In this document: positions 12,328 to 19,398 of the stretch, piece by piece | Position numbering within the stretch: the stretch's first letter is position 1 | Layout: each line of letters begins with the position of its first letter | Virus record (IMG/VR): IMGVR_UViG_3300036766_000416 | Span: 1-64,000 of that record | Length of the DNA stretch: 64,000 nucleotides | From: a virus | Strand: one strand, 5' to 3' | Translations under genes and position numbers: made by a program | Notes under the pieces: generated by a model | Database searches by the model: none | Told to the model about the DNA's origin: nothing | What the model saw: only the letters and a program-made list of their open reading frames with translations

Positions 12328-12401
12328 ACGCATTTCGTACAACAGCAGTACCTCCGCCCGATTAGCGGATGATCACAGTGCAATTCTGTGAATGCGTACC
12401 A
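12328..12401 (+). tRNA. trnI: tRNA-Ile(GAT), atypical loop
   Basis: Cloverleaf with CCA; anticodon loop CCGATTA (C33, U37). Confidence 0.7.
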
Positions 12402-14424: not shown

Positions 14425-14781
14425 ATGTGTGAATCAGAGATTGAACAGATTGACCGGGGCTCAGAGAGAGCCAAGCGAATAATCGCCGAGGTGATTCAAA
14501 CAATCACCTACAAGCCTGGGTACACGTTCACCTGGGATCAGTGTGATGATGGAAGGTTTTTATTCTACCTTCATACTCCGGCGATACAAGACGCGAAGCA
14601 TGTTGATAGGAAATTTACGATCAGACGGTTCGAGTATTTCCTCATAGAGTCGTGTCAGACACAAGCCGATGTTCGTCAGTGTTTTATTGATTTGATTTTG
14701 GGGTGGGAAAAACACGAATTGTATGAGTGGTTGAAGTTTGATGGTAAACAGTTCAAGGACCCACACATAGAAGAATTATAG
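14425..14781 (+). CDS. Hypothetical protein in tRNA array
   Basis: 118-codon ORF, HELYEWLKFDGKQFKDPH C-terminus. Confidence 0.6.
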   Translation: MCESEIEQIDRGSERAKRIIAEVIQTITYKPGYTFTWDQCDDGRFLFYLHTPAIQDAKHVDRKFTIRRFEYFLIESCQTQADVRQCFIDLILGWEKHELYEWLKFDGKQFKDPHIEEL

Positions 14782-14853
14782 CGGGGTAGAGAAGAGGCCC
14801 ATCTCGTCAGGCTCATAACCTGGAGACCGCTGGTTCAAATCCAGCCCCCGCGA
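14780..14853 (+). tRNA. trnfM: Initiator-like tRNA-Met(CAT), no encoded CCA
   Basis: Loop CTCATAA, 1:72 mismatch, fMet-like acceptor GCGGGG. Confidence 0.8.
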
Positions 14854-14902
14854 CTTCCCTCTTGAGAGATAGAGGGAGTTCAATACCTCGGTGTTGAACT
14901 AT

Positions 14903-14910: not shown

Positions 14911-14931
14911 GTGCATGGAGGGAGACTAACT

Positions 14932-15555
14932 ATGCACTATCTTGTATATTTGATTACGAATCTTGTCAATGGTAAACATTACATTGGATGCCACAAGACT
15001 AAAAATAAAGATGACGGCTACATGGGATCAGGTAAGTATTTGAAGAATGCTCAAAAGAAATATGGTCTAGAGATTTTCAAAAAAGACATTCTCTTTGAAG
15101 CATCTTCTTCCGAGGAGATGTTTGCAAAAGAAAAAGAATTGGTGATTTTGGGACCCCAGAGTTATAATCTTAATGAGGGTGGTCAAGGCGGATTCGATCA
15201 TATCAACAGAAACAGGACACCTGAGGAATGGCGTAGGCTTCATAGTTTGGGCGGAAAAGCAGCAAGACCTTTTTTGGGTAAAAGGCATACCCCCGAAACT
15301 ATAGAAATATGCAGACAAAAATCGAAAGATGCTTGGTCCAACGGATTGATGATAAATGGATTTACTGGAAAGCATCATACCAATGAATCCAAGGCAAAGA
15401 TCGCCGCAAGCAATTCCAAGACACACAAGGGGACAGGGAATCCGAATTTTGGTAAATGTTGGATTACGAATCTTCTTACTAAAGAAAATAGGTTGATTGA
15501 AAAGATTTCCGATATTCCAGATGGATGGGTAAGAGGACGAAGAATGGCTCATTGA
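14932..15555 (+). CDS. Seg-like GIY-YIG homing endonuclease with NUMOD3 repeats
   Basis: YLVYLITNLVNGKHYIG, YMGSG, YNL, GKHHT repeats. Confidence 0.85.
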   Translation: MHYLVYLITNLVNGKHYIGCHKTKNKDDGYMGSGKYLKNAQKKYGLEIFKKDILFEASSSEEMFAKEKELVILGPQSYNLNEGGQGGFDHINRNRTPEEWRRLHSLGGKAARPFLGKRHTPETIEICRQKSKDAWSNGLMINGFTGKHHTNESKAKIAASNSKTHKGTGNPNFGKCWITNLLTKENRLIEKISDIPDGWVRGRRMAH

Positions 15556-15623
15556 CTGAAGGAAGTTTCAGACTTCTCTCATAAGGAAGATTGAGGTTGG
15601 TGCAAGTCCAACATGAGCCACCA
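15546..15623 (+). tRNA. trnM: tRNA-Met(CAT) (elongator, or Ile2 if lysidinated)
   Basis: Loop CTCATAA, CCA. Confidence 0.8.
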
Positions 15624-15708: not shown

Positions 15709-15794
15709 AAAATTATGCTAGGACCAACAATTGGTGAGACAGCGTTGGTTGCGAAGGAAGATGTAGTTACCAATCTTCCCCTAGTAGATTATAC

Positions 15795-15884
15795 GCTCCT
15801 GCGCCTTGATAGGCAGAGTGGCCTTATAAGCCAGTCGCTCTAGATGAGAGCCTTGACTGAGTTTGATTCTCAGCAGGAGTACCA
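15795..15884 (+). tRNA. Non-canonical tRNA with TAT anticodon and long variable arm
   Basis: 7-bp acceptor plus ACCA, 4-bp D stem with TGAT loop, loop CTTATAA, V-arm hairpin GCTCT-AGATG-AGAGC. Confidence 0.7.
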
Positions 15885-15890
15885 AAATAT

Positions 15891-15974
15891 GGGTGTGGAG
15901 CCTAACATGGGTGAAGGGGCCGGCTGTAACCCGGTCTAGCCATCAACAAGGTTCGATTCCTTGCACACCCACCA
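15891..15974 (+). tRNA. trnY: tRNA-Tyr(GTA)
   Basis: Loop CTGTAAC, extended V region, CCA. Confidence 0.9.
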
Positions 15975-15991
15975 TGTTGACAGGAGACTTG

Positions 15992-19323: not shown

Positions 19324-19398
19324 GCGTCCTGGGCAGGTTAGATATGCGCCTCCCCTACAAGGAGAACCAAGAAGGTGCAATTCCTTCAGGACGCACCA
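19324..19398 (+). tRNA. trnV: tRNA-Val(TAC)
   Basis: Loop CCTACAA, CCA. Confidence 0.8.

Follow-up and report, generated by a model that had tools for sequence, protein, structure and literature searches.

Bacteria normally need an essential enzyme, TilS, for a tRNA that reads AUA as isoleucine instead of methionine. The locus analysed here displays the anticodon UAU in a non-canonical fold, and the question it raises is whether it is a genuine tRNA gene and, if so, which amino acid it would deliver to AUA codons. It lies in a 64-kb stretch of DNA (the window), which is the first part of the complete 178.6-kb genome of an uncultured virus with direct terminal repeats. The window phage (G000) has about 47% G + C and carries T4-type baseplate and tail genes; psbA is absent from it. 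On the + strand of the window a tRNA array extends from 12.9 to 20.2 kb, with 25 tRNAs called by ARAGORN at its default threshold. Rfam contributes seven more tRNAs in a scan at the gathering threshold, a tmRNA and, when the region is scanned more closely, a tRNA-Tyr; the tRNA count rises further with relaxed ARAGORN settings. The array is interrupted by genes for HNH, GIY-YIG and PD-(D/E)XK endonucleases, and downstream of it lie genes for two ligases, a DNA ligase and the RNA ligase RtcB.

The region 15795–15884 escapes the standard searches. ARAGORN at its default threshold makes no call over it, and neither RF00005 (tRNA) nor RF01852 (tRNA-Sec) of Rfam matches there even at E ≤ 10, the gene falling below the 29-bit gathering threshold of RF00005. 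Run at -ps80, ARAGORN calls the same segment tRNA-Leu(taa) by forcing it into a poor canonical register. We rejected that call, as the covarying pairs described below back another register, in which UAU stands in a proper 7-nt loop. The minimum free energy (MFE) fold of the single sequence is a cloverleaf with z = -3.4, and none of 200 shuffled sequences equalled it.

A tRNA gene of five helices

The tRNA(UAU) gene occupies 15795–15884 on the + strand and specifies a 90-nt RNA of five helices with an encoded CCA end. Its parts are as follows.

15795–15801 (+): 5′ strand of the acceptor stem, pairing with 15874–15880 through G1-U72 and then six Watson-Crick pairs
15802 (+): linker of one nucleotide (C), which is C, A, U or G across homologues
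15803–15814 (+): D arm, with a 4-bp stem (GCCU/AGGC) and the tetraloop UGAU, which contains G18 and A19
15815 (+): A26, invariant in homologues
15816–15836 (+): anticodon arm, with the loop CUUAUAA and the anticodon UAU at 15825–15827
15837–15851 (+): extra hairpin, GCUCU-AGAUG-AGAGC, with GAU at 15843–15845
15852–15856 (+): connector, a 5-nt single strand (CUUGA) that matches a class I variable loop in length and position
15857–15873 (+): T arm, with a 5-bp stem and the loop UUUGAUU, in which U56 pairs with A19
[quoted passage not shown]

An earlier note, made from the sequence alone, had described this segment as a non-canonical tRNA with a UAU anticodon, and the fold together with covariation in 22 homologues bears this out. 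The acceptor, A73-CCA, linker, D tetraloop, anticodon loop, hairpin and T loop all lie where that note had placed them. The mismatch that it saw in a 6-bp anticodon stem is also present, although the stem is more precisely one of seven layers, comprising six pairs and a single G-G mismatch, and the mismatched position is G-U or A-U in 16 of the 22 sequences.

Homologues and covariation

Viral, metagenome and genome collections were scanned for the pattern and then searched with a covariance model (R1), which yielded 22 distinct homologues in four subfamilies, all of them within phage tRNA arrays and at differing positions in those arrays. Two relatives of the window phage, one complete (G001, 176 kb) and one of 89 kb (G002), carry a copy at the same place as the window phage, and in all close relatives the gene is flanked by tRNA-Leu(UAG) and tRNA-Tyr, the next tRNA being 6–7 nt away. 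R1 scores the window copy at 109.9 bits and the family at 66.8–112.7 bits; a degenerate relative (L101) reaches 49 bits and ordinary tRNAs at most 40 bits. Among cultured phages, the gene is carried by Sinorhizobium phage Phosso, whose copy GenBank labels tRNA-Ile(tat), and by Synechococcus phage S-SRM01, whose copy is unannotated and missing from the published tRNAscan-SE 2.0 list (PMC8557907). A 5-kb contig binned as Cryomorphaceae has a copy as well; the contig consists of a tRNA array only and is probably phage DNA. The loci retrieved via RtcB covered the 3′ half of the arrays only, and no match was obtained when a phage collection was queried with the 431-bp region or when viral contigs were searched with an exact 17-mer.

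When the 22 sequences are aligned with MAFFT, 95.8% of the cells are paired and 21 of 29 pairs have changed on both sides, with compensatory changes backing all five helices. None of 500 shuffles reached any of the five measures used, and slid registers were 41–49% paired. The acceptor stem is paired throughout at all seven positions, six of them with double changes, and position 1:72 is G-U in 20 of 22 sequences. The D stem (4/4 pairs always formed, three with double changes) and the T stem (5/5 always formed, four with double changes) behave similarly, while double changes are found in four of the seven pairs of the anticodon stem and in three of the five pairs of the extra-arm stem. The elbow pair 19:56 covaries too (G-C in 13 sequences, A-U in 8 and G-U in 1), indicating that the tiny D loop still takes part in the elbow contact and that the RNA should remain L-shaped. 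A D loop of 3–5 nt, a single linker nucleotide and a 7-layer anticodon stem recur across the 22 sequences. U33-U34-A35-U36-A37, A73 and AGAU in the extra loop are invariant in 22/22. The connector is CUUGA or CUCGA in 20 of 22, its last two bases, G and A, being invariant, and CCA is encoded in 21 of 22, the exception being S-SRM01, which has UUA.

The comparative data also settle how the acceptor branch is divided. The MFE fold of the single sequence points to an 8/4 branch, which the alignment rejects: the eighth pair that it would need fails to form in 3 of 9 sequences, and position 8 is A in subfamily D, whereas the T stem's fifth pair covaries and is intact throughout. The branch is thus 7/5. 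An alternative pairing of GUC (15834–15836) with GAC (15855–15857) finds no support in subfamily B and was discarded. We likewise dropped C4-G69 as a possible IleRS mark; this pair is invariant in subfamilies A–C but is A-U in subfamily D. Taken with the homologues, these data identify the locus as a real, strongly conserved phage tRNA gene of odd fold.

Two further RNAs lie next to the gene. A tRNA-Tyr(GUA) at 15891–15975, 6–7 nt downstream, is missed by default ARAGORN and was recovered by Rfam only on closer scanning, at 35.9 bits; no clear stem is seen in its variable region. The spacer directly upstream holds a second conserved structured RNA at 15718–15784 (+), which occurs in subfamily A and B phages and is lacking in subfamily C and D arrays. 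It forms two hairpins with compensatory changes in 14/14 pairs and a loop-loop pairing that covaries between UUGG/CCAA and UUAC/GUAA (4 vs 4), and it is flanked by a weaker closing stem. Here 92% of the cells pair, none of 500 shuffles match and Rfam gives no family.

Several further loci were noted. On a 1-kb metagenome contig, L101:683–763 (-) has lost the D arm and CCA and carries the loop GGUGUAA in place of CUUAUAA, with the CAGAUUA extra arm and the connector kept; it is probably a decaying family copy. A 1.3-kb metagenome contig bears tandem canonical class I tRNAs (L081:47–121 and 143–216), both with UAU, whose acceptor, D-stem and T-arm sequences resemble a subfamily C member, a resemblance that hints at an origin of the family from an ordinary tRNA(UAU). 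Descent from a class II tRNA-Leu was considered and set aside; R1 gives such tRNAs 33–40 bits, but inspection by eye shows no more than general tRNA features in common. In a phage of subfamily C, the gene next to it on the downstream side (L064:1755–1843) specifies an 89-nt tRNA-like RNA with a likely GCU anticodon, G73, a 6-bp D stem with a tetraloop, and an extra hairpin with a 7-nt loop, and may belong to the 8/4 phage tRNA-Ser species that Mukai et al. described. Two 52-kb viral contigs (L047:6370–6470 (-) and L050:9339–9440 (-)) contain a tRNA-like 3′ half after a long, poorly folding 5′ part; the 3′ half has a UAU-type loop, a canonical T arm and ...GGGGGUACCA.

Comparison with known tRNAs

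Canonical tRNAs have two linker nucleotides, at positions 8 and 9. The phage tRNA(UAU) has in common with them the 7-bp acceptor and 5-bp T stem, the 7-nt loop with U33, a purine at position 37, the discriminator and CCA, but it has one linker nucleotide instead of two, a D loop shorter than the canonical 7–11 nt and a 7-layer anticodon stem instead of one of 5 bp. TilS-independent bacterial tRNA-Ile2(UAU), such as that of Mycoplasma mobile, has UAU, A37, A73 and a presumed reading of AUA as isoleucine in the absence of lysidine in common with the phage tRNA; however, the bacterial tRNA-Ile2(UAU) is an ordinary class I cloverleaf, unlike the five-helix phage RNA, and works with an adapted IleRS, in which Arg replaces Trp, and an adapted ribosome (PMC3575796). 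Unlike the M. mobile tRNA, the phage tRNA(UAU) must work with any IleRS that its host has. The tRNA-Ile of T4 is likewise brought by the phage as its own AUA decoder, in a cluster broken by homing endonuclease genes such as those of the T4-like window phage, but it has a CAT anticodon and the normal 74-nt class I shape. A CAU tRNA-Ile needs the host TilS to become an AUA reader.

Other tRNAs with extra arms resemble the phage family in part. The 8/4 allo-tRNA(UAU) of Acidobacteria combines UAU, an extra arm, a D tetraloop and a long anticodon stem, was drawn with five stems, comes from metagenomes and is missed by standard finders (PMC5389517; PMC7609411). As described, however, allo-tRNAs have an 8/4 or 9/3 branch and mostly G73 or U73, which sets them apart from the 7/5, A73 phage family, whose D stem, at only 4 bp, is also not long. 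Genes for allo-tRNA(UAU) are found in soil bacteria close to toxin-antitoxin or transposon genes, and their stems are often broken, in contrast to the intact stems and tRNA arrays of the phage family, and the allo-tRNA(UAU) was inactive in translation tests (PMC5389517). tRNA-Sec has a 13-bp branch (8/5 or 9/4), UCA and a 6-bp D stem, compared with the 7/5 branch, UAU and 4-bp stem seen here. With its 7/5 branch and A73, the phage tRNA is thus neither an allo-tRNA nor a tRNA-Sec, and the likeness to both that the earlier note had drawn fails on the defining feature, as the branch is not 8/4, 9/3 or 13 bp.

[quoted passage not shown] The phage family differs in having no Leu-type D arm and in its anticodon-arm-sized extra arm with GAU. 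It also lacks the 3-bp D stem, the large D loop with A14 and G18G19 and the short V loop of class II tRNA-Leu; its extra-arm loop is of 7 nt (5 nt in subfamily A), versus mostly 3–4 nt in the Leu tRNAs of the arrays. Finally, mammalian mt-tRNA-Ser(UCN) and tRNA-Pyl provide precedents for an L-shaped RNA with a one-nucleotide linker between acceptor and D stem, a small D loop and a long anticodon stem (PMC7609411), but in these the variable loop is of 3 nt and the anticodon stem of 6 bp, compared with the 7-layer stem, extra hairpin and 5-nt connector of the phage tRNA. Our literature search found no paper on a five-helix UAU/GAU tRNA architecture. The phage family is a widespread, structurally new tRNA variant.

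An extra arm that displays GAU

The earlier note had taken the extra hairpin for a long V-arm. The hairpin itself is present, but it is better described as a second anticodon-type arm, which is then followed by a 5-nt variable loop. In the 22-sequence alignment the GAU of this arm is invariant. Sixteen of the sequences have a stem of 4–5 bp and the 7-nt loop CAGAUUA, in which GAU takes the central positions 3–5, and the other six, of the type found in the window, have a loop of AGAU followed by G or C and closed by a U-A pair. By comparison, the V loops of ordinary class II tRNAs in the same arrays are mostly of 3–4 nt, and only 9 of 48 such tRNAs contain GAT at any point of the V region. Given the size of an anticodon arm, the central GAU and the 5-nt connector, the RNA is best read as a class I tRNA with tandem anticodon-type arms and not as a class II tRNA.

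GAU is the ordinary isoleucine anticodon. The extra loop is nevertheless only a partial copy of a tRNA-Ile anticodon loop, since it has A at the site of U33 and U, G or C at the site of A37. A tentative proposal, which we consider possible but rather doubtful, is that the extra arm serves as a second anticodon arm, with its GAU, the triplet best recognized by ordinary IleRS, used for charging and the separate UAU arm for decoding on the ribosome.

AUA codons and the phage tRNA set

The meaning of AUA in these phages was assessed from 206 conserved ORF pairs of G000 and G001, which provide 41,802 aligned codons at 62% identity. The 395 ATA codons of G000 face ATT 67 times, ATA 64 times and ATC 62 times in G001. 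By residue, ATA is matched to Ile in 49% of cases, to Val in 14%, to Leu in 10% and to Met in 7%, the same profile as that of ATT (59%, 15%, 9% and 3% in this order), and 61% of the CTA partners are Leu. ATA thus swaps freely with ATT and ATC, which indicates that AUA is an ordinary isoleucine codon in these phages. It is used 9.4 times per 1000 codons in the phage and makes up 15% of the Ile codons.

The tRNAs of the window phage cover all amino acids and nearly all codon boxes. We found no other AUA-cognate tRNA in this phage and no credible tRNAs beyond the array, and the phage encodes neither an IleRS-type (class Ia) synthetase nor TilS. The set includes Ile(GAU) at 12328–12401, an initiator-like CAU tRNA at 14780–14854 and a second CAU tRNA at 15546–15623. 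The last has an acceptor resembling that of the E. coli elongator tRNA-Met, but it could still be a lysidine-type tRNA-Ile2.

Several tRNAs of the phage are themselves unusual. The second CAU tRNA (78 nt) escapes ARAGORN unless the threshold is low, has the T loop UGCAAGU and seems to have either a lengthened anticodon stem or additional nucleotides separating that stem from the D arm; its start is overlapped by the end of a GIY-YIG endonuclease ORF (14911–15555). C33 is very unusual in a tRNA. It is present in the anticodon loop of tRNA-Ile(GAU), CCGAUUA, which also has U37 (CCGAUGA and CCGAUAA in relatives), and in the loop CCUACAA of the tRNA at 19324–19398, which ARAGORN calls Cys(aca) and which is better read as Val(UAC). 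Bacterial tRNA-Leu is class II. All four Leu-anticodon tRNAs of the window phage (14338–14415, 15631–15708, 18818–18894 and 19147–19221) are only 75–78 nt long including CCA, a length that implies a short variable loop, and related phages have both short and long (83–90 nt) Leu tRNAs.

Proposed function and amino-acid identity

The earlier note had left two options, either a TilS-independent AUA decoder or a tRNA charged with serine or leucine that mistranslates AUA. The first is the one favoured by the data, as ATA stands for isoleucine, the gene is the only AUA-cognate tRNA of the phage and its anticodon is fixed. We regard it as probable, with clear reservations, that the RNA is an isoleucine-charged AUA decoder that would not need TilS. 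The AUA-cognate UAU, A37 and A73 are invariant in all 22 sequences, and with UAU as anticodon no lysidine, and hence no TilS, would be required. Serine identity is unlikely, since of the 23 Ser tRNAs in these arrays 22 carry G73 whereas the tRNA(UAU) family has A73 in 22 of 22. Tyrosine identity needs G34 and U35.

Processing of the RNA, its charging with isoleucine, its use by the ribosome and the role of the GAU arm are inferred. The gene would be transcribed with the rest of the 12.9–20.2 kb array and the transcript trimmed to the 90-nt RNA, its CCA already present. The 7-bp acceptor and 5-bp T stem would stack into the normal 12-bp branch for EF-Tu, and the minimal D arm would dock on the T loop through 19:56 to give an L-shaped elbow. 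The 7-layer arm would then present UAU and the second, anticodon-sized arm GAU. The host IleRS is predicted to attach isoleucine, reading A73 and the A35-U36-A37 loop, with the GAU loop of the extra arm possibly standing in for the anticodon favoured by IleRS. So charged, the tRNA would close the single gap in the phage set and allow AUA to be translated without reliance on the scarce host tRNA-Ile2.

Several considerations temper the isoleucine reading, among them the incomplete likeness of the extra loop to a tRNA-Ile anticodon loop and the chance that the second CAU tRNA is a tRNA-Ile2. E. coli IleRS charges UAU tRNA poorly, and on E. coli ribosomes UAU tRNA reads AUG as well (PMC3575796), suggesting that an ordinary host may cope badly with the phage tRNA unless its odd build compensates; the GAU arm could be the answer to poor charging of UAU by IleRS. 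The 7-layer anticodon stem and one-base linker put the arm two layers beyond the canonical one, and its fit to the ribosome is putative. By analogy, moreover, the two class II-like UAU precedents would speak against an isoleucine decoder, as neither is one (PMC3333845, PMC5389517).

Alternative explanations

Some of the same features would suit a tRNA-like RNA that does not decode, for instance a decoy or antidote for a host toxin or anticodon nuclease that targets tRNAs, or a regulatory RNA. The allo-tRNA(UAU) found near toxin-antitoxin genes and inactive as a translator is a precedent (PMC5389517), and the RtcB and ligase genes just past the array, together with re-coded elbows (T loops) in many tRNAs of this phage, which suggest conflict over tRNAs, fit such a role, as does an anticodon stem so lengthened that it may misfit the ribosome. 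However, all that an elongator needs has been kept, including the 7/5 12-bp branch, A73-CCA, the elbow pair and the 7-nt loop with U33 and A37; the gene fits the one empty slot of a complete decoding set; and no protein gene travels with it across four subfamilies that differ in array layout. We consider a non-decoding role unlikely.

A somewhat smaller chance is given to mischarging, in which a synthetase that ignores the anticodon, most likely LeuRS, would place leucine or another residue at AUA codons. Like tRNA-Leu, the phage tRNA has an extra arm and A73, 9 of 42 Leu tRNAs in the same arrays have G1-U72 with A73, and the top R1 matches outside the family are the class II Leu tRNAs mentioned above (33–40 bits). 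The poor handling of UAU by E. coli IleRS (PMC3575796) would favour such an outcome, for which the Leu-charged nev-tRNA(UAU) (PMC3333845) and the Ser-charged allo-tRNAs (PMC5389517) are precedents. Against this, the D loop has 4 nt, whereas all phage Leu tRNAs compared keep the large Leu-type D loop. E. coli LeuRS reads D-loop and tertiary features and not the V arm, which argues against charging with leucine. The Leu tRNAs of the window phage have no long V arm, so the extra arm would be no leucine mark for its host, and this arm is in any case sized like an anticodon arm and unlike a V arm. The anticodon is fixed in 22/22, whereas anticodon-blind families drift, the allo-tRNAs across 35 codons; Leu partners are not in excess at ATA sites (10% vs 9% for ATT); and for a serine version G73 is absent. 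Chance hairpins or a decaying pseudogene, as the silence of standard finders and the loss of the D arm and CCA in L101 might suggest, are refuted by compensatory changes in five helices and a tertiary pair and by homologues in phages of cyanobacteria and rhizobia, leaving this explanation extremely improbable.

Implications

Because default ARAGORN, Rfam and the tRNAscan-SE 2.0 list for S-SRM01 miss these genes, phage tRNA inventories and codon-usage studies undercount AUA decoders. If the isoleucine reading is correct, the family would show that a five-helix tRNA found in nature is accepted by the bacterial translation machinery, and would offer genetic-code engineers a natural scaffold. If the extra arm indeed serves as a second anticodon arm, the identity anticodon and the decoding anticodon of one tRNA would reside on two different hairpins, and AUA could be read without TilS even where the host IleRS rejects UAU. 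This could be the first separation of a loop read by the synthetase from one read by the ribosome, and would bear on the evolution of tRNA identity. If the family works as proposed, many phages of cyanobacteria, rhizobia and other aquatic and soil hosts would have swapped the need for an enzyme, TilS, for a redesigned tRNA.
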